Virus record (IMG/VR): IMGVR_UViG_3300047560_001157
Origin: an uncultured virus (IMG/VR IMGVR_UViG_3300047560_001157)
Taxonomy: Duplodnaviria > Heunggongvirae > Uroviricota > Caudoviricetes
Length of the DNA: 20,000 nucleotides
Direction: 5' to 3' (one strand)
Part shown: piece after piece, positions 1,862-19,149 of the stretch
Position numbering within the stretch: position 1 is the first letter of the stretch
How the letters are laid out: every line of letters starts with the position of its first letter
Translations under genes and position numbers: made by a program
The notes under the pieces: generated by a model
Seen by the model: the letters and a program-made list of their open reading frames with translations, nothing else
Told to the model about the DNA's origin: nothing
Database searches by the model: none

Positions 1862-4800
1862 TTATGCAAAGTCATCAATTCTACCTTCGCTTTGAGGTAG
1901 TCTATCTAAATTAAGTAGAGGCACAATCTCAGGTGCTTCACTTGCAGGTTTTGGTCCAGCACTTTCGTCGGCAGACACTGCTTGACCAGAACTGGTTGAT
2001 CCGCTGGTAGTAACTGCTCCGCTAGAGTCAGTACCGCCGGTGTTGTTTAGTATGCCAAGTATTCTTTCTTCTTCTGCAAGCTGTTCATCAGTCAATGCGG
2101 CTCTTTCTTCATCCTTGACTTCAAAATCAATATCTTGTTCTTGATATCTAATCAGTGTTAACGTTTGTTCAAACTTACCAGTTTTGAATTCGTTTACTAC
2201 TTCTTGTACTCTGTATACACCACTGAATGTGGTTGTGTCTGTGCTTACCGAAGCTGTGCCACCTTTAAGATCGTCCATGTCTGTTGGCAGTACAACATCA
2301 ATCCATGCTAGAACTTCGCCAGCATCCATGATCAATGCATTGTTGTTTAGTGTAATATCGCCATTGGACCTATAGGCTTGATCTACTTTTATACCATCTG
2401 ATGTAGCAGTACGTCCGTTGGGATCATACCACTTGTTAACATTAAAAAATATATCGTCTTGTTTGATCAGCGTAGGATCGCCGATAATTTTTAATGTTAG
2501 TGTTAACATGTCTCCTGTGGACCTGCTGTAGATGCTGTCGTTCATGGAACTAATTGCAACAGACACAGGATCTTTATCAACTTTTTTGCCAGTGATTGCG
2601 CTAAGGTCTTGACTTACAACCAGCAAGGACACAGGTGTAATTGTATTTGAAGTTTTTTTAGATCTATCGTTAGAGTCTTTTCCAGATTGTTCTGCGGTAG
2701 CATCATTGCCCTGTGCATCTCGAGTATCATCATCTGTGTTTACTTCTTTCAATGCTGAAATAGTAGTAATGTACAGCATGTCAAAGTCAATTTGGAAATC
2801 AATGATCGACGTGTTCTCGCCAGAATACAAGTATTTGTAGTATTTGACTACGTCTGCTTTTTTAGGAGATTGCTTTGGCAGATTAGGATGTTTTGTATTG
2901 TAAACCAAATAAGGTAGTACAAAGTATGTGACATCGTAGGTCCATCTATTGATTACGGCATCAAATCCTGTAATTGAAATCGAAGGCAAAATCTTCCACC
3001 ACTTGACAATGCCTTTCTTAGATGTTGTTGTAGCTTCATTTTTGTTTGCTACCAACACTTGCCCACGGATATAATCTGATGATAACATCACCATGTTGAT
3101 TACTTCAGGAATTGCCATACCAGCTGGGATAGACCATCTGTCACGTTTCTTTTCATCTGCCACTGGACGGTCACGAGGCATGTCTGGCTTGGCCATAGCA
3201 CTTCTACCTGCAGACGAATCAACTTCGCTGGGCCGTGCCATTTTTTCTCCAGCAATAATTTCATCGTGGAATCGCACTTTGATAGAATTAGGTATACTGT
3301 TTTGATCAACCACATTCAGTTGTTTTAGTTTAGCGTACCAACTGTTTACACCAGCAATGTAGCTGTTGATTTCATAAGTCTTGTCTTTAAGACTTCCGTT
3401 CTGTTCTAATATCCTAGCGGCTGCATCTGCTTCGCCAATGTTTTGTTGCTTGGCCAAGTTTGCAATTTCATTGCGTTGATTGTCAATAGAGTTGTTAATT
3501 AAATTTGTATCACTGGCATTAGTATCTGCAAAAAACTCTCGCAATGTCATCGACGACACATCAAAGTTTGCAGGAGTGGTTGACATGGACTGCAACAAAC
3601 TTCTATGATGGAATGGTGCGGCTGTACACACATATTCGCTGCCTTTGCCCGACACTTTGACTTTCATATCAAAGATTGAAATTGGAATGTATTTTCTATG
3701 TTCAATTAATAAGCCAAATTGACTGTCATAGAAATCAATCTGCAACATATAGCACAACTGCATATATGTAGGCTGTTTTAGTTTCTTTGATGTTTTTAAC
3801 AGTCTGTCCAACAGGCTGAGTCCATATGGCTCAATGATAGTGAATTCAATGTCAATGGTGTTGGTTGTTCTATTAGTAGAACTAGGCCCAACAACTTGTG
3901 ATACTTTTAGTCCGTCAAAAAAGAAATTGTGTTCCCAACCAGGCTCTCTGCGTAAAAATGTTTTTGACAGAGTTGGATCACCATCAACTGTTTGATCCAG
4001 CGGGCTGGTGCTGAATACGTTTTCATCCCATCTGCCTGCACTTGCAATCAGCGTGTGCGAAGGTTTCCAATCTGCCGCGTTCTGTGACAGTTGTTTGTGT
4101 TCTTCTTCTGTCAGAACATGCAAGGCTATGCCATATGTATAGTTGGAAAATTGATCCAGCGGGTTGTCCACAACATAGCTGGTAAACCCTTCTCCTGCTT
4201 GAGCATCTGTTACTACACTAGGATCGCTTGCACTTGATTTAATAGCATCGACTGGTGTGAATGATTCATCTGATGATTCAGCTTCTCGTGCCGCTAATCG
4301 ACTGGCTATTTCGGCAGCGGCTGCTGCCTGTTTAGCTTGGTATTCTGTTCCTCCGCCAATTGCTTCTCTTTTCAAGTCGTCAAGACTTTTGCCGTTGTTG
4401 TTTATTCTAATACGCTCTTCGGCTGATAAATTTTGTACAGTAGACGCATCGGCTTGTGCAGATGAATCCACTGCATCAGCGGCTCCGCCATCTCGAACTT
4501 TTCTTGCGGCAGCTTCGGCTTCGGCATTTGCTTTTGCTGCCTGCATTGCAACAAGTTGATCATATGGCTTAGAATAAGGTAAAAGACCATTGTTGGCATT
4601 TTTATACGAATCAACATACGATTGAAAATCAGCATATTGATCAGTACGCAAAATACTATCGTATGTGGTGAGCGTGTCGATTTGACCTGTGGTCAGTCTG
4701 CTATTTTCCGCGGCCCAGTTCTTGAATGCTTTTAGTTCATTGTCCTGCTGTTCAAACAGAGCAAGATTGCTATTCCTGAGAGTTCCGTATAAATCAAGAT

Positions 4801-6551: not shown

Positions 6552-6580
6552 TTGCTTTTCTACTATTTACCTGTTAAAAT
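6552..6580 (+). promoter_or_regulatory. Sigma70-like promoter for gp55
   Basis: TTGCTT (6552-6557), 17-nt spacer, TAAAAT (6575-6580) with extended -10 TG at 6572-6573. Confidence 0.6.
6564..6571 (-). promoter_or_regulatory. T4-type late promoter for the baseplate operon
   Basis: Minus strand reads GGTAAATA, ending 27 nt upstream of ATG 6537; TAAATA core of the T4 late consensus TATAAATA. Confidence 0.55.
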
Positions 6581-6611
6581 AACAGGTAGTTTTATAAGGA
6601 TTTTATTACAA

Positions 6612-7490
6612 ATGAAACACAACTATCTGAATAACAAAGACATATTAAAAGAAATACACAAGAGCAAGAACACCTACTGCTGGTTTATGACGCCTGGTGA
6701 TGCCGATTACGACATGATTATTTCTGACAACAAGAAAATAACCAAAAAAGACATCCTGCAGGCTAGAAAAAATCGTGCTGAGCGACTGGGCAAACTGGCC
6801 TACGAAGAGTCCATTGCCAATGGTGTGAAAGTAAAATTAGAAGAAGTTACCCCCAAGCATACTAAAATTCCCGAGGAAGATGTTGTTTTTCGTGTGATGA
6901 CCTGGGAACATGTGCCACTGCAAGAAGAAGTTAAAGTTGCAAAAAAGCGTAGTAAATCCGAACCTGTAGACGAAGACGAGTCTGTTGACACCGAATACGA
7001 TGAAGAAGTTGTCAAGCCAACTAAATTTGTCAAAGTTAATTTTCCTCCTTTCAAACACGTGAAGTTTGTTAAAAACGAAGAAGGCGAGTTAGAGCCAACC
7101 ACAGTGGGTATCAGTCATTGGAAGGGCGATCCAGAGACTGGGCACTACAGTCGTGAGCATGGAGCAATGACCAACAAGCTGGCACACATGTTTATGAAGC
7201 TGTGTGAACGTTATGCTACCCGTAGTAACTGGCGTGGTTACACCTACAATGACGAAATGCGCTCACAGGCTCTGCTACAGTTAAGTCAGATTGGATTACA
7301 GTTCGATGAAAGCAAGTCACAGAATCCTTTTGCGTATTACACTGCGGCTATTACCAATAGCTTTACTCGTGTGCTTAATATTGAAAAACGCAACCAAAAC
7401 CTAAGAGACGACATTTTACAAATGAACAACCTGAACCCAAGTTACACCAGACAAATGGCCAACAGTGGTTCTGGTATGCACGAAGAGTAG
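6612..7490 (+). CDS. gp55: Late-transcription sigma factor, T4 gp55-like (292 aa, with large internal insertion)
   Basis: HNYLNNKDILKEI; NWRGYTYNDEMRSQALLQL; FDESKSQNPFAYYTAAITNSFTRVL. Start moved from TTG 6552 to ATG 6612 because AAGGA RBS lies at 6596-6600 and the TTG is part of the -35 box. Confidence 0.9.
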   Translation: MKHNYLNNKDILKEIHKSKNTYCWFMTPGDADYDMIISDNKKITKKDILQARKNRAERLGKLAYEESIANGVKVKLEEVTPKHTKIPEEDVVFRVMTWEHVPLQEEVKVAKKRSKSEPVDEDESVDTEYDEEVVKPTKFVKVNFPPFKHVKFVKNEEGELEPTTVGISHWKGDPETGHYSREHGAMTNKLAHMFMKLCERYATRSNWRGYTYNDEMRSQALLQLSQIGLQFDESKSQNPFAYYTAAITNSFTRVLNIEKRNQNLRDDILQMNNLNPSYTRQMANSGSGMHEE

Positions 7491-7540: not shown

Positions 7541-8554
7541 ATGTCTAACCTATTCAAGAAGGCTGCGGTCTTCACCGATATTCATTTTGGCTTAAAAAGC
7601 AACAGTATCACTCACAACGAGGACTGTTTATCGTTTGTTAAATGGGCAGTTGCCAAAGCCAAAGAGGAAGGGTGCGAAACGTGCCTGTTCCTTGGTGACT
7701 GGCACAACAATCGAGCCGCACTAAACATTCTCACTCTAAACTACAGTCTCAAAGCACTGGAGCATATGAATGACAACTTTGAAGCTGTTTACTTCATTCC
7801 TGGTAATCACGATCTATACTATAGAGACAAGCGCGATGTACAAAGCGTGGAATGGGCACGTCACTTACCAAACGTGCATATTTGCAATGATTGGTTTAGC
7901 GACGGCGATGTTGTTATCGCTCCATGGCTTGTGGGCGACGACCACAAAAAGCTATTAAAGAAAAAAGGCAAGTATTGTTTTGGGCACTTTGAACTGCCTG
8001 GCTATTATATGAATGCCATGGTTCAAATGCCGGATGTGGGTGAGGCCAGGCGTGAGGACTTCTTGGGCTTTGAGCAGGTGTTTACTGGTCATTTTCACAA
8101 GCGTCAAAGCGCCAACAACATTACCTATATTGGTAATGCGTTTCCACACAACTACGCCGATGATGGCGACGAAGAACGTGGACTGACTATTATTGAATGG
8201 GGTCAAGACCCTGTTTACCACGCCTGGCCCGACCAACCTACATATCGTGTGCTGAGTTTGAGTAGTGTGGTGAACAATGCAGACAAAATCTTCAAGCCCA
8301 AGATGCATGCCAGGATCAACATTGACATTGATCTCAGCTACGAAGAAGCAAACTTCATTAAAGAAACATTCATTGATACTTACAAACTGCGTGAGCTTAG
8401 TTTAATCCCCAAGAAGGATGTTGAAGTCACAGCAGATGCCACAGGCGAAATCAAATTTGAAAGCATTGATACCATAGTACAAAATCAAATCAATGCTATT
8501 TCCAGCGAACACTACGATCCAAAACTACTGTTAGACATCTACAGGAACTGTTAA
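7541..8554 (+). CDS. gp47: Recombination endonuclease subunit, T4 gp47 / Mre11 / SbcD-like metallophosphoesterase
   Basis: Phosphoesterase motifs DIHFG, GDWHNN, GNHD, GHFE, GHFH; follows gp55 as in T4-like phages. Confidence 0.93.
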   Translation: MSNLFKKAAVFTDIHFGLKSNSITHNEDCLSFVKWAVAKAKEEGCETCLFLGDWHNNRAALNILTLNYSLKALEHMNDNFEAVYFIPGNHDLYYRDKRDVQSVEWARHLPNVHICNDWFSDGDVVIAPWLVGDDHKKLLKKKGKYCFGHFELPGYYMNAMVQMPDVGEARREDFLGFEQVFTGHFHKRQSANNITYIGNAFPHNYADDGDEERGLTIIEWGQDPVYHAWPDQPTYRVLSLSSVVNNADKIFKPKMHARINIDIDLSYEEANFIKETFIDTYKLRELSLIPKKDVEVTADATGEIKFESIDTIVQNQINAISSEHYDPKLLLDIYRNC

Positions 8555-9441
8555 TGCAGGCCAGTGATATCACCTGGTTACAAGTAGAAAATACTACTCG
8601 GTGCAATGCCTGGTGTCCCTCTTGTGGCAGGAACAACGGTGGCTATGGATTAAGAGATAACTTTGTAGAACAGGATTTAGATATCAATCGATTCAAAGAA
8701 GTGCTGGACATGTTTCCTAACTTGTCTACTATACAATTTTGTGGCACATACGGTGATGCACTGGCTTCGCCGGATTCTCTTGAACATATCGAAATCGCTG
8801 TGTCTCGTGTTGGGCACGTGAACATTCATACCAATGGCAGTTTACGCAATCAAGACTGGTGGCGTGATCTTGCTGAACTGCTCGCTCCTATTAGGCACGA
8901 AGTCTGGTTTACACTAGACGGACTAGCAGGAACACATGAAATATATCGCCAAGGCACAGCATGGCAAAAGGTTATCGACAATGCCACTGCGTTTATTGAT
9001 CAAGGCGGACAAGCGGTATGGCAGTTTATACCGTTTGAGCACAACCAAACAGAAATAACTCGATGCATAGCACTGAGTCAGCAGTTGGGATTCAAACGTT
9101 TTGAAATAGTTAGAAATGTTAGATATCCCGATGTGGCAAAACACTATCAAACAGGACAAACAATTGAAATAAAGCCTTGGAGCAAAGATCAAAAGACCAA
9201 CAAGTACAAACAACCTGACAGAACAGTAACCACAAAAGACTGTAGGCATCTAACAGATCCCAGTGTGTATCTAAGTGCCAATGGTCAGTTGTCGCCGTGC
9301 TGTTTTTTCAATCACAGGCGTGAGTACCACAGCTTTGATCAGTTGCCAGATATTAAACTTGAATTAGAACAGCATCCTCACCAGAAATGTTTACATTCCT
9401 GTGGTACATGTGCTAGTATAGACAACCATGATGATAATTAA
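8554..9441 (+). CDS. Radical SAM protein with C-terminal SPASM/Twitch-like Cys domain (paralog 1)
   Basis: CNAWCPSC (CxxxCxxC), CGTYGD, HTNGS, FTLDG; C-terminal C...SVYLSANGQLSPCC...CLHSC. Confidence 0.9.
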   Translation: MQASDITWLQVENTTRCNAWCPSCGRNNGGYGLRDNFVEQDLDINRFKEVLDMFPNLSTIQFCGTYGDALASPDSLEHIEIAVSRVGHVNIHTNGSLRNQDWWRDLAELLAPIRHEVWFTLDGLAGTHEIYRQGTAWQKVIDNATAFIDQGGQAVWQFIPFEHNQTEITRCIALSQQLGFKRFEIVRNVRYPDVAKHYQTGQTIEIKPWSKDQKTNKYKQPDRTVTTKDCRHLTDPSVYLSANGQLSPCCFFNHRREYHSFDQLPDIKLELEQHPHQKCLHSCGTCASIDNHDDN

Positions 9442-11197
9442 AAATCTTACTGTAAAAAACTTTATGAGCGTGGGTAATGCCACGCAGGCCATTCGATTTG
9501 ATCGCAGTGATCTTACACTGGTGTTGGGGCAAAACCTAGACCTAGGCGGGGACGACACAGGCGCACGTAATGGCACAGGCAAGACCACAATCATCAATGC
9601 ACTGAGTTATGCGCTGTACGGCGAAGCACTCACACGCATTCGCAAGGAAAACCTAATTAACAAAACCAATGGTAAAGCTATGATGGTTACCATTGAGTTT
9701 GACAAAGACGGAGTCAGCTACAAGATTGAGCGTGGGCGTAAACCCAACACACTGAAATTCTTTGTGGGTGATGTAGAGCAAGAACAAAAAGACGAAGCAC
9801 AAGGCGACTCAAGAGAAACACAACATGCCATTGAACAGCTATTGGGCATGAGTCACGAAATGTTCAAGCACGTGGTTGCATTGAACACCTACACAGAGCC
9901 GTTCTTGAGCTTGAAAGCCGCAGAACAACGTGTGATGATTGAACAGTTGTTGGGCGTTACACAGCTATCAGAAAAAGCCGAAGCTCTCAAAGAGCAAATG
10001 AAGGCTACCAAAGATGCAATTACCAAAGAGGAATATCGCATCAAGGCTGTGCAGGATGCCAACAAGCGCATGGAAGATCAGATTGCTAATCTACGTCGCA
10101 GACAAACTCTGTGGCAGACCAAGAAGCAGGAAGATCTAGAAAAACTTGCTGTAGGCTACGCAGAGCTGGACAAAATTGACATTGAAGCAGAACTGGTTGC
10201 ACATCAACAGCTTGCAGAATACTTTGTTAAAAAGCAAGCCATTGATCAACTTAAAAAATATATTGTACAGAACGAGCGCGATGAAGCTCGTGAAAATCGT
10301 GTGGTGGAAAAGCTCAAAGCAGAAATTGCCAGCTTGGAAGATCACAAGTGTCATGCTTGTGGACAAGAACTACACGACAACAATCATGAGCAGTTGCTTG
10401 CTACTAAAAAAACAGAAATGCAGGAAGCCGCACTGAATGCGCTGAGTGCAAACACACAGTACATGGAGAACACCACTGCACTAGCAGAACTAGGTGAGCT
10501 GGGCGAAGTTCCTAAAACATTCTATGAGCGTGAAGCAGATGCATTTGAGCATCGTGCCAGTCTGGGTGCCATACTTGGACAGATTACTGCTAAACAGGAA
10601 GAAGCAGATCCATACTCTGATCAAATTGTAGAAATGGAAAAGCAGGCGCTGGAAGAAATTGATTATGATGAAATGAACAGGTTAACCAACCTGCTGGATC
10701 ATCAAGACTTTTTACACAAACTGCTTACCAGCAAAGACAGCTTTGTTCGCAAACGCATCATTGATCAAAACTTAACTTATCTAAATCAACGACTAAGTTA
10801 CTACCTTGACAAGATTGGCTTGCCACACACAGTGGTATTCCAAAACGACTTAACTGTTAACATCACTGAGCTAGGACGTGAACTAGACTTTGATAACTTG
10901 TCACGTGGAGAACGTAATAGACTTATCCTGTCACTGAGCTGGAGCTTCCGTGATGTGTGGGAAAGTCTGTATCAACCTATTAACCTGCTGTTCATTGACG
11001 AAGTTGTAGACTCAGGCATGGACAGTTCAGGTGTTGAAGCAGCCTTGGCTATTCTCAAGAAGATGTCACGTGATAGAAACAAGAGTGTTTGGTTGGTAAG
11101 TCACAAGGATGAGTTAACTAGTCGTGTTAGCAATGTGTTGACTGTTACAAAAGAAAATGGATTTACCAGCTATGGAACAGATGTTGACACCGTTTGA
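9428..11197 (+). CDS. gp46: Recombination ATPase subunit, T4 gp46 / Rad50 / SbcC-like
   Basis: KNFMSVG, Walker A NGTGKTT, coiled coil with zinc hook CHAC, signature LSRGE, Walker B LLFIDE, VSH. Start 9428 or 9431. Confidence 0.95.
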   Translation: MMIIKNLTVKNFMSVGNATQAIRFDRSDLTLVLGQNLDLGGDDTGARNGTGKTTIINALSYALYGEALTRIRKENLINKTNGKAMMVTIEFDKDGVSYKIERGRKPNTLKFFVGDVEQEQKDEAQGDSRETQHAIEQLLGMSHEMFKHVVALNTYTEPFLSLKAAEQRVMIEQLLGVTQLSEKAEALKEQMKATKDAITKEEYRIKAVQDANKRMEDQIANLRRRQTLWQTKKQEDLEKLAVGYAELDKIDIEAELVAHQQLAEYFVKKQAIDQLKKYIVQNERDEARENRVVEKLKAEIASLEDHKCHACGQELHDNNHEQLLATKKTEMQEAALNALSANTQYMENTTALAELGELGEVPKTFYEREADAFEHRASLGAILGQITAKQEEADPYSDQIVEMEKQALEEIDYDEMNRLTNLLDHQDFLHKLLTSKDSFVRKRIIDQNLTYLNQRLSYYLDKIGLPHTVVFQNDLTVNITELGRELDFDNLSRGERNRLILSLSWSFRDVWESLYQPINLLFIDEVVDSGMDSSGVEAALAILKKMSRDRNKSVWLVSHKDELTSRVSNVLTVTKENGFTSYGTDVDTV

Positions 11198-12089
11198 TCC
11201 TGCTGGCATACGTGTACTGCATCTTGAGTTAACCACCAGGTGTCAAGCATCATGTCCTCAATGCAGTAGAATGGATCCTAGTCTAGGCTACAGTGATGAT
11301 CATGACTTAACACTGGCACGTTGCAAAGAATTGTTTTCAGAAGATTTTGTACGCCAGCTGGATAAGGTGTTTGCCTGTGGAGACTTTGGCGATCCGGCGG
11401 CAGCTAAAGAATGTATACCTATACTGCGTTGGTTTAGAGAAGTTAATCCCAACATCACCCTGGGCATGAATACCAATGGTGGATTACGTGACACACGTTT
11501 TTGGATTGAACTAGGCGAACTGTTTAATTGCAATCTAGATTATTGTGTGTTCAGCATCGACGGCATGGCTAGTACCAATGACATCTATCGCCGAGGTGTT
11601 ATGTGGCATCGTGTGATGCTGAATGCAGAAACATTTATCATGTCAGGCGGGAGAGCACACTGGGACATGCTGGTGTTTGAGCATAATCAGCATCATGTTG
11701 ACCATTGCCGTGAACATGCTAGAAAGATGGGCTTTACACATTTTCGTGCCAAGGTTAGCAATAGATTTGAAGATCGTCCTGTGGAGTTTTTATCTCCGCC
11801 CAAAGGCTATGTTCCAATCGTGCCCGATGGCCCAATTTCCTGTCATGCTGTAAACGAAAAAAGTTTATACGTGTCAGCAACGGGGCAAGTACTGCCCTGC
11901 TGTTTCATAGGCAACAGAATTTTTACACTAGACGATCAACTAAAACAATGGATACAAGCACCAAATTATCATGGACTCGCAGACAGCTGGACCACAAATC
12001 CGCATGAAGTTTGCAAAAGGCACTGTTCTACACACAACAATCAAACACACTTTTCAAGGCAATTTACAGAAGAAACCGTTCTAAAATAG
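11157..12089 (+). CDS. Radical SAM protein with C-terminal SPASM/Twitch-like Cys domain (paralog 2)
   Basis: CQASCPQC, CGDFGDP, NTNGG, FSIDG; C...SLYVSATGQVLPCC...CKRHC. True start is more likely ATG 11172 or 11181 (smaller overlap with gp46). Confidence 0.9.
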   Translation: MDLPAMEQMLTPFDPAGIRVLHLELTTRCQASCPQCSRMDPSLGYSDDHDLTLARCKELFSEDFVRQLDKVFACGDFGDPAAAKECIPILRWFREVNPNITLGMNTNGGLRDTRFWIELGELFNCNLDYCVFSIDGMASTNDIYRRGVMWHRVMLNAETFIMSGGRAHWDMLVFEHNQHHVDHCREHARKMGFTHFRAKVSNRFEDRPVEFLSPPKGYVPIVPDGPISCHAVNEKSLYVSATGQVLPCCFIGNRIFTLDDQLKQWIQAPNYHGLADSWTTNPHEVCKRHCSTHNNQTHFSRQFTEETVLK

Positions 12090-12141: not shown

Positions 12142-12657
12142 ATGACCAGTCCACAAAAAGCAAAAGGAAATGCATGGGAACGCAAGGTGGCAGATCACCT
12201 TACTGTTACCTATGGAGAACGCTTTATCCGCGTTCCGCATTCTGGCGCTTATATTGGCGGGTCAAATGCAAATCGCAAAGAGATACTGCACGAGGGACAA
12301 ATAAGAAGCTTCAAAGGGGATATTATTCCTGGACAGAGTTTCCCAAAGTTCAATGCTGAGTGCAAAAGTTACAAAGACTTTCCATTTCATCAACTCTTTC
12401 AAGGCTCCTGCAAACAGCTGGATGACTGGATTGAGCAAACATTGGATGTAGCCGACCAAGGTGATTTCAATATTCTGTTCATGAAGTTCAACCGCAAAGG
12501 CATGTTTGTAGCGGTACAACATGGCACACATTGGGATCTATCGATACCACATCTTCTCTACCAATCAGACAAACACGGCTCCTGGCTCATTTACGATTAC
12601 GATAAATTTTGGGAACACAACGAACACGTTAAAGTAGTTCGTACTCTGTGTTCATAA
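12142..12657 (+). CDS. Holliday junction resolvase-like PD-(D/E)XK endonuclease (archaeal Hjc / T5 D14 type)
   Basis: KAKGNAWERKVA, R.PHSGA, GDII and AECK match the Hjc-type E...D...ExK active site; lies downstream of gp47/gp46. Confidence 0.8.
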   Translation: MTSPQKAKGNAWERKVADHLTVTYGERFIRVPHSGAYIGGSNANRKEILHEGQIRSFKGDIIPGQSFPKFNAECKSYKDFPFHQLFQGSCKQLDDWIEQTLDVADQGDFNILFMKFNRKGMFVAVQHGTHWDLSIPHLLYQSDKHGSWLIYDYDKFWEHNEHVKVVRTLCS

Positions 12658-12659
12658 CA

Positions 12660-12995
12660 TAGCAACATTGTTTGGTCTAGGCTGCTAGACTCACCTTGAG
12701 GTTGTACAGGTAGTGCTGTGCCGCTAGATACTGGTGCGTTGCAAGAAAAGAACTAACTTAAGGTTCAAATGGTCGTGGCTCTGCGAAAAAGATGCAACCA
12801 CAGCTTATAGGATTTGGGTCTATTCCGGATCACTAGGGTTCCGTTGACATGCGAAGCTTGGGTAGGGGGTACAGGTCAACCGCCTCCGTGTCTTACGACA
12901 ATCCCATTTAGAATAGATGACTGTGCTACTCAGATGATGCACGTTTTTTGCCCGGCAACGGGCGAATTCTGACCGATTAATCTAGATGATACTTA
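12660..12995 (+). ncRNA. Putative large structured non-coding RNA, family not recognised
   Basis: No long ORF. About ten stems found by hand, several containing G-U pairs that work only on the + strand. GCAA tetraloop hairpin at 12947-12966. Two loop-mediated pseudoknot pairings: 12843-48 with 12875-80, and 12818-24 with 12912-18. Boundaries approximate. Confidence 0.6.
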
Positions 12996-12998
12996 AAA

Positions 12999-13062
12999 TC
13001 GCTAAAGCGAAGAAAGATATTGATGAGCGATAGCGAAATCAATAGAACTGCGAAGCAGTTCT
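12999..13062. repeat. Cluster of three short inverted repeats with GCGA/GCGAAGC motifs between convergent operons
   Basis: TCGC-TAAA-GCGA (12999-13010); TATTGAT-gagcgatagcgaa-ATCAATA (13018-13044); AGAACTGC-GAA-GCAGTTCT (13044-13062). Confidence 0.7.
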
Positions 13063-13082
13063 TGAAAGTGTTAGAAAAAGTA

Positions 13083-13301
13083 TTAGAAGAATGGTAAACC
13101 ACTGTTCTTAGTAGTTTCCATATTTTCTTTAATAATTTCCCTGATGATTTCGTTGTCAGTGTGAGCCAAGGACATAGCGGAATCATAATCTATTCCTCCG
13201 CGCATCCACCAGGTAAATCTAATCACTTCCTCGCGTATGGCTCTTGACTGTTTGTCGTATTCTTCTAGCAACAATCCAATTTCGTCGTCGGTTAAAGTCA
13301 A
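13083..13301 (-). CDS. Baseplate hub assembly/tail chaperone C-terminal module, gp51-like; possibly expressed as a -1 frameshift extension of gp26
   Basis: 72 aa, WWMRGGIDYDSAMSL...EIIREIIKEN. TTG start overlaps the gp26 stop (TTGA) and has no Shine-Dalgarno; lies directly after the gp26-like gene. Confidence 0.6.
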   Translation of the reverse strand: MTLTDDEIGLLLEEYDKQSRAIREEVIRFTWWMRGGIDYDSAMSLAHTDNEIIREIIKENMETTKNSGLPFF

Positions 13302-14173
13302 GAGCCGACTACGAAAAAATTTGAATAATCAAATAGGATAGCAATGTCCAGCGGTTCATTGCAAGAGTTACAGTTTACTTTAACTGGCTTAACTGCACCT
13401 TGTTCTTGTAGCTTGGTGATTTCATTTTGTATCTGATCAAATATTTTACGATCAACTTCGTTTAAGAAATCTTTAATAAAGTTTTGATCTCCAACTCTTT
13501 CACCACTTTCAACAATTTCAATGTATTCAATACTGCTGGCCATAACAGAGTGATTGATTTCGTTAACACGCATCAGCTGATCTGTTAGTGCTTTGGTCTT
13601 TTCTTCATCTTCCTCGTCACCGGGCAATGCTTCCAGAGCCATTTGCAGTTTACGCACTTCAAAACTGGTTTTGTTTGTGAAGTTGGTTTCCCAGTACATC
13701 TGTGGGCGGAACTTGATTTTAATAACGCCGATGTCTAGATCTTTATCGTAGTCGGGGCATTTGATAGAATCCAACATCACACGTAGATCCACTGCATAGT
13801 CGTGTTCTGCTTTGCAATGCGGACATTTGTTTGTAAAATCCATTTTGTGCCCGTAGCTGGCAATACGCATGGCTATCAGACAAGTGTCTACGTCTACACT
13901 GGGCATTTTCCAAGCGTCTTTGATGTTGGGCATACAGCTTTGTATTACATCGGTTACGCCTTGTCCGTTGATCAGCGCATCTGGAGTTCTGATCATGATT
14001 TCATCACGATTGGTCATAGGATACACAGGTAATTCCCCGTTTTCGGGTAATTCCAGTGCTCCGTCTTTCCACCAGCGTCCTCCACTGGGCAAACCAATAT
14101 AAATTGCCGGGGTGCGGAAAAACTTGCTCAGTGGGTTATTTGCTGGTGGCACTGCTGTCTGTTCTGTGCTCAT
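13298..14173 (-). CDS. gp26: Baseplate hub assembly protein, T4 gp26-like
   Basis: P.IYIGLPSGG, ELPVYPMTNRDEI, DVDTCLIAMRIASYG, two CxxC pairs (CPHC, CNSC), near-terminal SNFF; GAGGA RBS upstream. Confidence 0.8.
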   Translation of the reverse strand: MSTEQTAVPPANNPLSKFFRTPAIYIGLPSGGRWWKDGALELPENGELPVYPMTNRDEIMIRTPDALINGQGVTDVIQSCMPNIKDAWKMPSVDVDTCLIAMRIASYGHKMDFTNKCPHCKAEHDYAVDLRVMLDSIKCPDYDKDLDIGVIKIKFRPQMYWETNFTNKTSFEVRKLQMALEALPGDEEDEEKTKALTDQLMRVNEINHSVMASSIEYIEIVESGERVGDQNFIKDFLNEVDRKIFDQIQNEITKLQEQGAVKPVKVNCNSCNEPLDIAILFDYSNFFVVGS

Positions 14174-17403: not shown

Positions 17404-19149
17404 ATGTCTTGGAAAAAATATTTTAAGAGCTCTAACATACCCCAGAATATGGGAGGTGCTGTTAGTCCATTCACATTCAATGGAAGCTCTACCCCTACTA
17501 ACCCTGGTTATCGCAACTGGCAAAGCAGTCTGCCAGAAATTTATATTGGACATCCAAATCGTGTTGAGCGATACAACCAGTATGAACAAATGGACATGGA
17601 CAGCGAAGTCAATGCGGCCCTAGACATTCTAGCAGAATTCAGCACACAAGACAACGAAGAGTATGGTAATGCTTTTACACTAGATTTCAAAGAGCAACCA
17701 ACTGAAAACGAAATTAAAATTATCAAAGAACAACTGCATCAGTGGGTAAGTCTCAATGAACTGAACAAACGTATCTTTCGTATTTTCCGTAGCGTTATCA
17801 AATACGGAGATCAAGTGTTTGTGCGTGATCCAGAAACATTCAAACTGTTCTGGGTTGAAATGTCAAAAGTGGTTAAGATTATTGTAAACGAAGCAGAGGG
17901 CAAACAGCCTGAGCAGTACATTATCAAAGACATTAATCCTAACCTGCAAAACCTAAGTGTAACCGCAGTAGCCGCAACAGACACATATATTAACCATCCG
18001 CAAGTGGGTGGACCCACTGGTAGCTATGTACAACCCAGCAATTATACAGCAGGTGGTAGCCGTTTTAGCCAGGCTAAAAACGAAGTAGCAATCAACGCAG
18101 AACACGTTTTACACATGAGTTTAACAGAGGGCCTGGACGTATATTGGCCGTTCGGCAACTCTGTTTTAGAGAACATTTTCAAGGTGTTTAAGCAGAAAGA
18201 ACTGCTGGAAGATGCTATTATTATCTACCGTGTACAACGTGCTCCAGAGCGTAGAATCTTCAAAATTGACGTAGGAAACATGCCAAGTCACATGGCTATG
18301 GCCTTTGTTGAGCGTATTAAAAACGAAGTGCATCAGCGTAGAATCCCCACACAAACAGGTGGCGGAACAAACATGATGGATGCTACTTACAACCCATTGA
18401 GCCAAAATGAAGACTATTTCTTCCCTGTTACAGCAGACGGCCGTGGGTCTAGCGTAGAGACACTAGCAGGCGGTCAGAACCTAGGTGAAATCACTGATTT
18501 ACACTTCTTTACCAACAAATTATTCCGTGGTTTACGCATTCCAAGTAGCTATTTGCCTACAGGACTAGACGACGGCGCACAGGGCAGTTTTACTGATGGT
18601 AAAGTAGGCACAGCACTGATTCAGGAATGGCGCTTTAACCAATACTGTTTGCGTTTACAAAAGATTGTTGCTGAATATCTAGACAAAGAGTTCAAGCTGT
18701 ACATGAAGTGGCGCGGTATTAGTATCGACGGACAACTGTTTGATCTTAAGTTTAATCCCCCACAGAACTTTGCACAGTACCGTCAAGCTGACGTTGATAT
18801 GGCACGTATCAACACATTTACACAGTTGGAGCAGTTTCCTTACTTCTCCAAACGTTTCCTAATGCAACGTTTCTTGGGCTTAACTGAACAAGAAATGACA
18901 GAAAACGAAAGCATGTGGGCAGAAGAACAAGGTGATGTTGAAACTGCACCTGCTGATGCTGCCGAGCTACGTTCAGTGGGCGTAACCCCAGGTGGCATCC
19001 AAAGCGACCTAGAAGCCGCAGACGTCCCTGCTGAAGGAGAGCCAGGAATGGGCATGCCAGGTGAAATGCCAGCTGGTCCAGGCATGGGCAGTCCAGTCCC
19101 AGGAGGCACAGCATCCACGCCTGCAAGCGGCATACCGCCGGCAATATAA
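17404..19149 (+). CDS. gp20: Portal vertex protein, T4 gp20-like
   Basis: YEQMDMDSEVNAALDI, LLEDAIIIYRVQRAPERRIFKIDVGNMP, EDYFFP, VETLAGGQNLGEITD, KLFRGLRIPSS; Pro/Gly-rich C-terminal tail. Confidence 0.96.
   Translation: MSWKKYFKSSNIPQNMGGAVSPFTFNGSSTPTNPGYRNWQSSLPEIYIGHPNRVERYNQYEQMDMDSEVNAALDILAEFSTQDNEEYGNAFTLDFKEQPTENEIKIIKEQLHQWVSLNELNKRIFRIFRSVIKYGDQVFVRDPETFKLFWVEMSKVVKIIVNEAEGKQPEQYIIKDINPNLQNLSVTAVAATDTYINHPQVGGPTGSYVQPSNYTAGGSRFSQAKNEVAINAEHVLHMSLTEGLDVYWPFGNSVLENIFKVFKQKELLEDAIIIYRVQRAPERRIFKIDVGNMPSHMAMAFVERIKNEVHQRRIPTQTGGGTNMMDATYNPLSQNEDYFFPVTADGRGSSVETLAGGQNLGEITDLHFFTNKLFRGLRIPSSYLPTGLDDGAQGSFTDGKVGTALIQEWRFNQYCLRLQKIVAEYLDKEFKLYMKWRGISIDGQLFDLKFNPPQNFAQYRQADVDMARINTFTQLEQFPYFSKRFLMQRFLGLTEQEMTENESMWAEEQGDVETAPADAAELRSVGVTPGGIQSDLEAADVPAEGEPGMGMPGEMPAGPGMGSPVPGGTASTPASGIPPAI

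Follow-up and report, generated by a model that had tools for sequence, protein, structure and literature searches.

A conserved structured RNA of about 400 nt, with two pseudoknots and a short variable word carried twice, in uncultured T4-like giant phages

Positions 12662-13062 (+) of the window, the 20,000-nt stretch of uncultured virus DNA analyzed here, hold a conserved structured RNA of about 400 nt, as confirmed by comparison with homologous sequences. Its core of about 150 nt is shown to be nearly invariant and to be joined by two pseudoknots, which are nested with three further helices. Downstream of the core, a 7-nt word that differs between phages is carried twice, and the two copies change together. 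On balance, we favor the view that this is a stand-alone noncoding RNA gene of about 400 nt, whose product would act in trans, with a double-pseudoknot core and one programmable word presented twice.

The RNA occupies a gap that the initial annotation had pointed out in an otherwise tightly packed genome. The gap is real, bounded by the end of a nuclease gene at 12657 (+) and by that of the following gene, which lies on the - strand, at 13083. The element starts 5 nt past the nuclease stop codon and reaches beyond 12995, its previously assigned end, by two additional conserved hairpins (13019-43 and 13044-62). The nuclease gene is the final member of a gp55-gp47-rSAM-gp46-rSAM-nuclease block. 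On the other side, the converging ORF 13083-13301 (-) is probably a -1 frameshift extension of a gp26/gp51-like gene (13298-14173); read on that strand, TTTTTTC comes just before 13301. The RNA had been described as immediately downstream of the nuclease. This holds for the window but not generally: among 83 loci found by motif whose sequence extends 150 nt or more upstream, only 7 have the nuclease directly 5' of the RNA. The RNA is retained although its flanking genes differ between phages. Sequence scans found neither a promoter nor a canonical + strand terminator for it. The RNA probably arises at the 3' end of the early/middle DNA-metabolism operon or directly behind it. Late genes here are preceded by T4-like TATAAATA motifs (late promoters).

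A profile search (nhmmer) places the RNA in 209 of 236 fetched loci of uncultured T4-like giant phages, and a scan with the core motif finds it in at least 120 viral contigs. It occurs as a single copy in each of 7 of the 10 long phage records searched, both complete genomes (~340 kb) included. The carriers appear to be a widespread clade of giant T4-like phages from lakes, uncultured and ~340 kb in genome size, and the RNA is apparently a standard part of them. A divergent subfamily has a different 5' domain. Among 50,697 records of cultured phages there was no DNA match to the RNA. Judged by portal protein, PA5oct-like Pseudomonas jumbo phages and Sinorhizobium phage Phosso come closest among cultured phages (~50-52% identity); a covariance model built from the core domain (R1, positions 12771-12926) had no match in PA5oct and a best match of only E = 0.26 in Phosso. 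Related genomes carry 27-44 tRNAs, in large arrays, and a permuted tmRNA (ARAGORN). The clade is equipped with near-complete tRNA sets and its own tmRNA, and the RNA may belong to an undescribed viral take-over of RNA or translation.

The fold was evaluated on 96-97 non-redundant homologues, aligned with L-INS-i (MAFFT). The core model has 47 pairs, both pseudoknots included, and 93.9% of its 4340 cells are paired (96 sequences). Shuffled partners pair in 77.7 ± 0.4% of cells, with 0 of 500 shuffles reaching the observed value, and slid partners pair in 39.6-46.2%. Compensatory change on both sides is seen in 37 of the 47 pairs, and doubly changed cells number 624 against 155 expected. RNAalifold, run on 32 sequences, returns 41 pairs, 30 of them with compensatory changes. 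One pair of the first pseudoknot (PK1), for example, is C-G in 53 sequences and U-A in 28. The RNA also has long invariant single-stranded runs. The features of the element and its flanking genes are listed in Table 1.

Table 1. Features of the RNA and of its immediate neighborhood (positions in the window; pairing as the share of paired cells among homologues)
Feature	Position	Strand	Evidence and remarks
Upstream gene, PDDEXK_15 (Hjc/RusA-like) nuclease	12142..12657	+	Pfam PF24608, E = 2.2e-25; PHROG 244; outside the RNA
5' domain (P1-P4), variable	12662..12766	+	column-wise pairing across homologues
P1	12662-66/12738-42	+	within the 55-71% range
P2 hairpin	12675-80/12685-90	+	64.7% column-wise; many pair types
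P3	12692-95/12733-36, 12700-02/12723-25, 12704-09/12716-21	+	P3a 94.8%, P3b 95.1%; several pair types
P4 hairpin, conserved loop UAACUUAAG	12750-53/12763-66	+	within the 55-71% range
Near-invariant core, two pseudoknots	12771..12926	+	core-model pairing, 96 sequences
Core hairpin	12775-78/12798-801, 12782-85/12793-96	+	first stem 99.0%
Long core hairpin	12804-16/12826-38	+	91.6%; 12 of 12 pairs changed on both sides
PK1, loop of long hairpin with downstream strand	12818-24/12912-18	+	93.5% and 87.8% (two halves)
PK2, upstream strand with hairpin loop	12843-48/12875-80	+	95.3%; 5 of 6 pairs changed on both sides
Core helix	12859-62/12903-06	+	97.7%
Core helix	12865-70/12882-87	+	99.5%
Variable core hairpin	12889-92/12897-900	+	81-94%; length variable
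Module 1, UGAC-N6-ACUC-X-G	12918..12940	+	X = 12932-38 (AGAUGAU here)
Inter-module hairpin, stem UUUGCCC/GGGCGAA, loop GGCAAC	12947..12966 (12947-53/12960-66)	+	GNRA-type loop in many members
Module 2, UGAC-N6-AUCU-X-A	12970..12992	+	X = 12984-90, the same as in module 1
A-rich variable linker	12993..13018	+	length and sequence vary widely; small local hairpin 13000-13011 here
Hairpin A, conserved internal loop UGA/GAAA	13019..13043 (stem 13019-23/13039-43)	+	
Hairpin B, AGAACUGC-GAA-GCAGUUCU, GNA triloop	13044..13062	+	
Downstream converging ORF	13083..13301	-	ORF list; context, outside the RNA

Seven of the ten helices proposed in the initial annotation, together with both of its pseudoknots, are borne out by these homologues: the helices are conserved in relatives, and compensatory changes occur in both pseudoknots. 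Three proposals are not confirmed. CGCTAG/CTGGTG (12722-36) is displaced by the first P3 helix, and only its inner two pairs are regularly pairable. GTGC/GCAC (12923-42) is merely 54.9% paired column-wise, because this closing helix shifts register between sequences. For the long-range closure GGTCG/TGACC, pairability is 79.0%; compensation is scant, and a single pair accounts for 31 A-C mismatches. In the 5' domain, P1, P2, P3c, and P4 are badly aligned variable hairpins with 55-71% column-wise pairing, yet they show many compensating pair types; P2 is among the earlier-proposed helices that are borne out. Such variable hairpins are under-scored because L-INS-i gives an alignment that is not structure-aware.

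Read on the + strand, the alignment contains 1027 G-U cells and 316 A-C cells. The + strand is therefore the RNA, as had been argued from individual wobble pairs. Folding energy, proposed as a further check, is marginal on this strand (z = -1.80; 5 of 100 shuffles fold as well), compared with z = -0.14 on the - strand. It is a weak signal by itself; the case rests on covariation.

For the last two hairpins (13019-43 and 13044-62), G-U counts do not settle the strand; Hairpin B has 21 G-U against 17 A-C cells. Pairing reaches 84.0% in the outer stem of Hairpin A, where 132 cells have changed on both sides, and 92.8% in the inner stem. The apex of this hairpin is a 2-bp GC stem with a GNNA loop (UGAGCGAUAGCGAAA). 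By analogy with known GNRA and tandem G-A motifs, its loop and internal-loop motifs would be meaningful on the + strand alone. Hairpin B is paired in 92.7% of 756 cells, of which 153 have changed on both sides, and is the likely 3' boundary of the RNA. On the - strand, it scans as a terminator-like site facing the converging late operon.

A small protein-coding gene was considered and rejected. Of 97 homologues, 94 interrupt the candidate ORF 12814-12972 with internal stops, and 70 differ from it in length by a number that is not a multiple of three. The median length of the longest open stretch is 65 aa, compared with 66 aa in shuffles, and neither Pfam nor PHROG gave a match for the ORF. A search for sequencing runs gave 24, one of them RNA. 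In one metatranscriptome, short assembled contigs of relatives extend over the nuclease gene and the RNA; these establish neither a transcript nor its ends.

The two modules are each 22 nt long and lie ~52 nt apart; among homologues, spacing, and with it unit length, ranges from 49 to 64 nt. In module 1, ACUC is invariant, while X is polymorphic yet equal to the X of module 2. In the window, helix 12923-26/12939-42 closes a hairpin whose loop contains the box of module 1. The hairpin between the modules is paired in 93.2% of 678 cells (27-47% with slid partners), with 66 changed on both sides. Across 97 sequences, the identity of X between boxes is 97-100% at every position, although X differs between phages (X1 = A67/G29; X5 = G58/A36/C3; X7 = U72/A22). 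The mutual information between equivalent sites of the boxes is 0.81 of 0.89, 1.13 of 1.13, and 0.75 of 0.89 bits, whereas it is at most 0.38 with any other column. A second patch of identity covers bases 1 and 3 of UGAC (12918/12970 and 12920/12972). Equal words are likewise found in 17 of 18 divergent members and in another complete genome, and the 97 + 18 sequences inspected include none with one or three modules. Three occurrences of AGATGA had been noted earlier: those at 12932 and 12984 are the co-varying boxes, whereas that at 12915 is part of PK1 and is not conserved as such.

The two copies have switched together on at least 14-16 separate occasions. On a tree built without these columns, there are 14-16 changes per box (X1 and X5). 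Independent contrasts go in the same direction in 9.8 of 10 cases for X1 (P about 0.002) and 8 of 8 for X5 (P about 0.008), although phage recombination could have inflated the count of independent switches.

We found no partner for X inside the RNA by mutual information, and a scan of the RNA for 7-mers complementary to X, G-U pairs allowed, gave a best site common to just 16 of 97 sequences. No partner emerged from five phage contigs (the window's own 94.9-kb contig and four others, one a complete genome of 347 kb). Extended matches of 9-12 nt in these contigs are near chance and fall in unrelated genes at non-orthologous places. The window's own contig has one 12-mer identical to box 1, antisense to a giant ORF, without a counterpart in the other genomes. 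The tRNA and tmRNA regions contain no consistent X site.

In the reading that we favor, the RNA would act in trans as a ribonucleoprotein or catalytic scaffold, with the invariant core as its functional or partner-binding center. Together, the two modules would be a programmable recognition device that depends solely on the two copies matching. The same word could be read twice by one kind of nucleic acid partner, or the boxes could be coupled directly, through strand transfer of a copied product or through box-box contact. A three-way coupling of partner and two boxes that changed 14-16 times would be unparsimonious, which weakens the idea of a common trans partner and favors direct two-site coupling.

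Large RNAs so conserved in architecture are rare, and most have proved to be ribozymes, ribonucleoprotein cores, or self-assembling machines. The near-invariant, double-pseudoknotted core of 150 nt is also a good target for structure determination. Identity rules between two sites are known from polymerase strand transfer, matched recombination cores, and translational hopping, but we know of no such case reported for any phage noncoding RNA. The rule is a sharp hypothesis that can be tested by mutation.

The RNA class looks new by sequence and model searches, in line with the earlier suggestion of an undescribed class: Rfam 15, ARAGORN, and the records of cultured phages gave no match. The 4227 models of Rfam 15, which include tmRNA, RNase P, group I/II introns, HDV-like, glmS, twister, and hammerhead RNAs as well as GOLLD, ROOL, OLE, HEARO, and T-box, had 0 matches at gathering score in the whole window. 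At E ≤ 10, the sole match in 12500-13250 is Ysr49, with 13.6 bits against a gathering score of 95. At E ≤ 1, 18 homologous loci gave two sub-threshold hairpin matches, both downstream of the element in a single locus (L134). ARAGORN detects no tRNA or tmRNA gene in either the window or the 94.9-kb contig. The literature searched yielded no published description of this RNA. Fragments of it could be among the 8495 viral candidate structures, with a mean length of 67 nt, that Fremin et al. 2023 (PMC10690425) report; the six smaller supplementary files of that article contain no match to the core motif.

The RNA resembles GOLLD and ROOL, which are also large, highly structured, pseudoknotted phage noncoding RNAs that came from comparative genomics with no function assigned. 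GOLLD and ROOL are roughly 600-800 nt in size and commonly lie near tRNA genes. In contrast, the present RNA is smaller (~400 nt), matches no Rfam model, and, in the complete genome G004, is separated from the tRNA cluster by ~85 kb. A recent preprint reports self-assembly of GOLLD and ROOL into cages (bioRxiv 10.1101/2024.12.08.627333).

A conserved scaffold with two short programmable sequences also recalls guide and sponge RNAs. Repeated recognition sites occur in box C/D sRNAs, CsrB-type sponges, and the IS110 bridge RNA, whose two loops share a core that needs a match in both donor and target. The boxes are not those of a C/D k-turn, because GAUGA is dispensable (variants GAUAAU, GAUCAA, ACGAAAU, and ACAGAAU), nor are they CsrA sites, because GGA is missing in 67 of 97 sequences. 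The 18 window ORFs scanned gave no sign of an IS110-type recombinase context.

The two-site identity could instead reflect programmed template jumping, which we consider rather unlikely. The RNA would be a template and scaffold on which a polymerase starts copying at box 2 and proceeds to box 1; the X of box 1 would template the 3' end of the product, which would then re-anneal on the X of box 2, and repeated rounds would yield tandem units of 49-64 nt, as in DRT2 rolling-circle reverse transcription, DRT10, and telomerase. Identity rather than complementarity, and the lack of an internal partner, are what strand transfer requires, and only two sites would have to change, which fits many coordinated switches. 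A template boundary could be marked by pairing of the fixed ACUC beside box 1 with GAGU (12860-63), which is feasible in 95.1% of cells but shows no covariation. There is a precedent in the DRT2 noncoding RNA, a pseudoknotted scaffold in which homology between ACA-1 and ACA-2 is reported to be required for jumping, with defense lost when it is broken (bioRxiv 10.1101/2024.05.08.593200). As described there, that RNA likewise combines a pseudoknotted scaffold with two short motifs that are the same and not complementary, the counterpart here being the 7-nt word. However, DRT2 is a host defense locus with a fixed ACA, whereas this RNA is phage-borne and its word is freely variable.

Several results speak against template jumping. 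A six-frame search of 5 phage records, including one complete genome, detected the reverse transcriptase domain RVT_1 (PF00078) in none, although control genomes were positive. Unlike in DRT2, DRT10, and telomerase, there is no adjoining reverse transcriptase gene, no conserved unit length, and no repeat ORF: unit lengths of 49-64 nt fall into the three classes modulo 3 as 55/27/15, and concatemers are stop-free in just 16 (+) and 20 (-) of 97 sequences, so that no neo-like gene would be made. The UGAC identity patch lies outside the would-be unit of module 1. Joints between boxes, whether head-to-tail or with the intervening segment skipped, were not seen in the 4 runs examined as assembled contigs. 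A polymerase other than a canonical RVT_1 reverse transcriptase, encoded by host or phage, might do the jumping, and the RNA might act as a decoy for host defense reverse transcriptases; we hold this version to be similarly improbable. Were template jumping to occur here, DRT2/DRT10/telomerase-like synthesis would gain its first counterpart on the phage side. An even stranger alternative would be a natural parallel-stranded contact between the boxes through like-with-like base pairs.

It is also doubtful, and a little more so, that the RNA is processed by itself or by an enzyme. The boxes would then be equivalent cleavage or ligation sites, with the core as a ribozyme or with a nuclease and ligase pair acting on them, and a 52-nt segment would be excised or circularized, for which a clean join requires identity. 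A nearly invariant, pseudoknotted core is ribozyme-like, the boxes have the common layout UGAC-N6-A-YYY-X, and box 1 sits in a hairpin loop. However, known ribozyme families gave no match even at E ≤ 10, no internal guide is complementary to X, and the joint expected from a skipped segment was absent from the assembled contigs. A hammerhead ribozyme (CUGANGA ... GAAA ... UH around a three-way junction) was rejected for Hairpin A, which is a two-way internal loop. In most members, it has only (C)UGA directly before the GC stem and lacks the full CUGANGA core, and the Rfam hammerhead models match neither the region nor the 18 homologous loci.

To much the same degree, we doubt that the element acts only in cis, as a structured 3'-end buffer between converging operons that terminates, insulates, or stabilizes their mRNAs. 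Its position between converging genes and the terminator-like reading of Hairpin B on the - strand are in keeping with such a role, and with a start so close behind the nuclease stop codon, it could be a simple 3' UTR. However, some 400 nt with two covarying pseudoknots and invariant single-stranded runs exceed what termination or stabilization needs, the RNA is kept while both neighbors change, and the rule of identity between the boxes would have no role.

A DNA-level element (a replication origin, protein-binding iterons, or a recombination site) with an incidental RNA fold is highly improbable: the direct repeats do lie about five helical turns apart, and site-specific recombination likewise demands identical cores, but the strand asymmetry and the compensatory pairs point to a folded single + strand, the spacing varies, one- and three-module members are absent, and the boxes are unlike the T4-like late promoters upstream of late genes. 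A late-promoter role for the boxes was rejected on this last ground, and the window has no excess of CTNAGATGAT (4 occurrences against 4.7 expected).

Two further systems bear comparison with the paired boxes. In the bypass of T4 gene 60, matched take-off and landing codons lie ~50 nt apart, with a hairpin. The RNA likewise has two identical short sites ~50 nt apart and a stable hairpin between them. In contrast to gene 60, every reading frame contains stops and none runs into the boxes, the triplet after box 2 is mostly a stop again, several variants have no stop, and evolution proceeds by base-pair compensation and not under codon constraint. T-box RNAs sit in the 5' leader of a gene under their control; they pair a specifier codon, with a purine behind it, to the tRNA anticodon, and a UGGN bulge to the NCCA end. 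A T-box-like RNA was rejected, since X1, X2, and X7 co-vary too, without the logic of an anticodon loop; furthermore, no + strand gene follows the RNA, and no Rfam T-box model matches.

Two further observations concern the composition of the word. Many X variants read GGA or AGA followed by UGA or UAA. In addition, X3-5 together with the invariant A at X6 can be read as a codon followed by a purine, with AUG, AUA, AUC, GAA, AGA, CGA, and CAA as the triplets.

Giant lake phages carry a real, strongly supported and apparently undescribed class of large structured RNA, as judged from sequence comparison. In the window, the candidate RNA occupies the gap between two converging genes (12658–13082) that the initial annotation had pointed out. 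Its plus strand (minimum free energy −123.7 kcal/mol, z = −1.80) folds better than most shuffled controls, but the signal is modest, with 5 of 100 shuffles folding equally well; the minus strand gives z = −0.14. It is comparative evidence, rather than folding energy, that is decisive for the reality of the RNA.

Using the nuclease and hub protein as baits, we collected 110 related viral loci. Searched with nhmmer, the gap sequence alone matches 66 of these, and its orientation to the anchoring nuclease or hub gene never varies. A degenerate pattern drawn from the 27 best-conserved nucleotides retrieved at least 120 further viral contigs and, from prokaryotic genome bins, six stretches, four of which are true members (two Haliscomenobacter contigs, one Flavobacterium, and one Hydrothermarchaeota by bin label). 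Phage contigs were probably sorted into cellular bins here, and the labels are thus a poor guide to the host. The first alignment yielded a profile that matches 209 of 236 loci, and 126 full-length copies were reduced to 96 non-redundant homologs plus the window. Among loci scored weakly by the sequence profile, a covariance model of the core recovers 19 more divergent members, whose core is shorter and whose 5′ domain differs. Each of the seven long records with a match holds exactly one copy; the RNA was not found at E ≤ 1 in three other long records (24%, 52%, and 87% complete).

Compensatory changes are found throughout the fold. RNAalifold on 32 sequences predicts 41 pairs, 30 of them with such changes. 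Our written-out core model (47 pairs, 10 helices) includes both pseudoknots proposed in the initial annotation and was counted on 96 sequences. Standard pairs fill 93.9% of 4340 cells, versus 77.7 ± 0.4% with 3′ partners shuffled (none of 500 shuffles gets as high), and sliding the partners by one to three columns lowers pairing to 39.6 to 46.2%. Both sides change in 37 of the 47 pairs, both pseudoknots being among those with compensation, and double changes occur in 624 cells where 155.5 ± 9.6 would be expected. The halves of pseudoknot 1 are 93.5% and 87.8% paired, with one pair occurring as U-A 46, A-U 16, or G-C 12 times; pseudoknot 2 is 95.3% paired, with one pair as U-G 60, C-G 15, or G-C 10. 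The element is also larger than first drawn, extending past position 12995 through two more conserved hairpins (A and B). In the 5′ domain, the variable hairpins reach only 55 to 71% column-wise because MAFFT aligns them poorly, yet each shows several compensating pair types. Two proposed helices, CGCTAG/CTGGTG and the long-range GGTCG/TGACC closure, do not hold in homologs. The GTGC/GCAC closure likewise fails column-wise (54.9% paired), its closing helix being present in many sequences in a shifting register.

Features of the window and of the candidate RNA (window positions)
Feature	Position	Strand	Remarks
gp5-like hub	2–1843	−	
Late sigma factor gp55	6552–7490	+	
gp47 nuclease subunit	7541–8554	+	
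Radical SAM gene	8554–9441	+	
gp46 nuclease subunit	9428–11197	+	
Radical SAM gene	11157–12089	+	
PDDEXK_15 nuclease	12142–12657	+	
Candidate RNA	12662–13062	+	
Helix	12692–95/12733–36		94.8% paired; outside core
Core	12771–12926	+	
Pseudoknot 1	12818–24/12912–18		
Pseudoknot 2	12843–48/12875–80		
Module 1	12918–40	+	UGAC-N6-ACUC-X-G, X = 7 nt
Hairpin	12947–66		93.2% paired; outside core
Module 2	12970–92	+	UGAC-N6-AUCU-X-A, X = 7 nt
Hairpin A	13019–43		84.0% outer, 92.8% inner paired; many compensations
Hairpin B	13044–62		92.7% paired; many compensations
Small ORF	13083–13301	−	
gp26/gp51-like hub gene	13298–14173	−	
Portal	17404–19149	+	

Summed over all helices, there are 1027 G-U cells versus 316 A-C cells, and the folded strand is thus the plus strand, as had been argued from wobble pairs in the window. 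This count does not decide the strand of hairpins A and B, for which a GNNA loop, a UGA/GAAA internal loop, and a GNA triloop favor the plus strand through their likeness to known motifs. A coding origin was rejected: the 52-codon ORF of the window has internal stops in 94 of 97 homologs and changes length by other than a multiple of three in 70 of 97, and open stretches in the region are no longer than in shuffled sequence.

The RNA matches no catalogued family. Rfam 15 gives no match at gathering score in the window and a single meaningless match in the element region at E ≤ 10. Scanning 18 homologous loci at E ≤ 1 adds only two hairpin matches, which fall below threshold and outside the element. 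In the window, ARAGORN detects neither tRNA nor tmRNA, in agreement with the earlier impression by eye. No similar DNA was found in cultured phage records, and the core model has no match in PA5oct and scores only E = 0.26 in Phosso. We found no published description of the RNA, a search that stops short of the large supplementary files of Fremin et al. 2023 (PMC10690425). That study reports 8495 viral candidate structures with a mean of 67 nt, a catalog that could hold single hairpins of this RNA. Together with the covarying plus-strand structure, these searches support the proposal of an undescribed class; both the structure and its novelty relative to catalogued families are shown.

The RNA was described as lying immediately downstream of the Hjc-like nuclease, which is true of the window and not of the class. 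Of 83 motif-found loci whose upstream sequence spans 150 nt or more, only 7 have the nuclease C terminus as the immediate upstream neighbor, and gp26/gp51-like sequence follows the RNA in 24 of 75. Other genomes have unrelated genes of 261 or 344 codons inserted between nuclease and RNA, and in one complete genome the nuclease gene is more than 3 kb away. Thus, the RNA is a conserved unit in a variable spot. A large subfamily (for example, fetched loci L148, L123, L163, and L232) has more conserved sequence ~30 to 75 nt ahead of the element: an inverted repeat, GGCCAUAU...AUGGC, then CAUAAACAAAAUUUAA, which is rich in A, and, immediately preceding the first helix, an AGGCA(A/G)C motif. These may be an upstream terminator plus promoter, or the RNA may extend farther in the 5′ direction; most of this stretch is missing from the window.

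We infer the expression and boundaries of the RNA. One of 24 runs is a metatranscriptome, with short assembled contigs of relatives that give no transcript, ends, or strand; one of 302 nt covers 12657–12805 with nine differences, and others cover the nuclease gene. Our scan found no sigma-70-like promoter or plus-strand terminator for the RNA; it scored hairpin B as resembling a terminator of the converging minus-strand operon.

The 3′ domain contains two modules of equal layout, 52 nt apart in the window, each with a box holding the same 7-nt word, X. Every position of X is the same in both boxes in 97 to 100% of 97 sequences, even though three positions are polymorphic (X1, A 67/G 29; X5, G 58/A 36/C 3; X7, U 72/A 22); X6 in box 1 is always A. 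Shared words include AGAUGAU, GGAUGAU, AGAUAAU, AGAUGAA, AGAUCAA, AGAUAAA, ACAUGAA, ACGAAAU, ACAGAAU, and ACCGAA(A/C), with AACAAAA, AGAUGAG, and AAAUGAA from further members, and the words are equal in 17 of 18 divergent members. The first base of UGAC also agrees between modules in all cases (U/U 91, C/C 5), while the three bases preceding X depend on the box (CUC in the first, UCU in the second, without exception). For equivalent positions, mutual information approaches entropy (0.81/0.89, 1.13/1.13, and 0.75/0.89 bits) and is <0.4 bits with any other column. On a tree built without box columns, the changes per box number at least 15 and 16 for X1, and 14 in each box for X5. Phylogenetically independent contrasts show box 2 moving with box 1 in 9.8 of 10 for X1 (P ~ 0.002) and 8 of 8 for X5 (P ~ 0.008); X7 (4 of 5) is not significant. 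Inter-phage recombination could inflate the number of switches; it could not create the coupling, because columns between the boxes are unlinked to them. Box 1 also has conserved alternative pairings that lack covariation: ACUC (12928–31) can pair with core GAGU (12860–63) in 95.1% of cells, and AGAU (12932–35) with AUCU of box 2 (12980–83) in 94.3%. AUCUAGAU of box 2 is self-complementary. These pairings may be switches or a boundary helix.

Function and partner are likewise ours to infer. Inside the RNA, X has no complementary partner; the best site, common to 16 of 97 sequences, owes its match to a fortuitous likeness to the loop of pseudoknot 1. Elsewhere in the phage contigs, to which we added four with different words (one a complete 347-kb genome), extended matches in either sense are near chance and in unrelated genes, and tRNA/tmRNA regions contain no consistent site. 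We consider it more likely that the two sites depend directly on each other than that they share a trans partner, because coupled change at two sites is far easier than at two sites plus a partner, and it occurred many times. Display of X3–5 with the invariant A as a codon (AUG, AUA, AUC, GAA, AGA, CGA, or CAA) is possible, but leaves the coupling of X1, X2, and X7 unexplained. Identical sites are exactly what three known mechanisms require, namely matched recombination cores, translational hopping, and strand transfer of a nascent copy. The last is documented for DRT2, where rolling-circle reverse transcription depends on ACA-1/ACA-2 homology and defense fails once that homology is broken (bioRxiv 10.1101/2024.05.08.593200). 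Such template jumping between boxes is the boldest reading compatible with our data. It is nevertheless improbable here, given that an RVT_1 gene was found in none of five phage records (one complete), the unit between boxes varies from 49 to 64 nt, no repeat ORF is conserved (concatemers are stop-free in 16 of 97 sequences on the plus strand and 20 of 97 on the minus strand), and a second identity patch lies outside the unit. A DNA-level element with matched recombination cores is scarcely credible against the strand asymmetry of pairing. Hopping is ruled out, as there is no reading frame, and we rejected the boxes as late promoters, which here resemble TATAAATA of T4, a motif not enriched in the window. 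For this rule of sequence identity between two sites of one RNA, our tests yielded no explanation.

The window belongs to a 94,879-base phage contig and has the gene content of a distant T4-like myovirus. Its portal reaches at most ~52% identity to those of cultured phages; PA5oct-like Pseudomonas jumbo phages and Sinorhizobium phage Phosso come closest. Two complete relatives with terminal repeats measure 346,856 and 338,435 bases, indicating a clade of giant phages. All runs sharing at least a small share of the window's sampled words are labeled water, sediment, or unspecified metagenome. The two radical SAM genes alternate with the gp47/gp46 (SbcCD/Mre11-Rad50-like) recombination nuclease genes in a single co-directional block, with the RNA at its end. 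The gp55-type sigma factor has 312 residues, nearly all spanned by its PHROG 12791 match; T4 gp55 is much shorter. The small ORF overlaps the gp26/gp51-like gene at the end of the latter, with a run of TTTTTTC ~20 nt upstream of 13301 (−). Outside the window, the opposite strand of its contig has a giant stop-free frame of ~6089 codons containing an antisense 12-nt copy of box 1, probably by chance because other genomes have no counterpart. ARAGORN finds no tRNA or tmRNA genes in this 94.9-kb fragment, and 27 and 44 tRNA genes in RNA-carrying relatives (G004, the complete genome of 346,856 bases, at 3264–3339 and 102805–116353; G001, at 150412–170232), which also encode a permuted tmRNA of the two-piece type that includes a tag reading frame.
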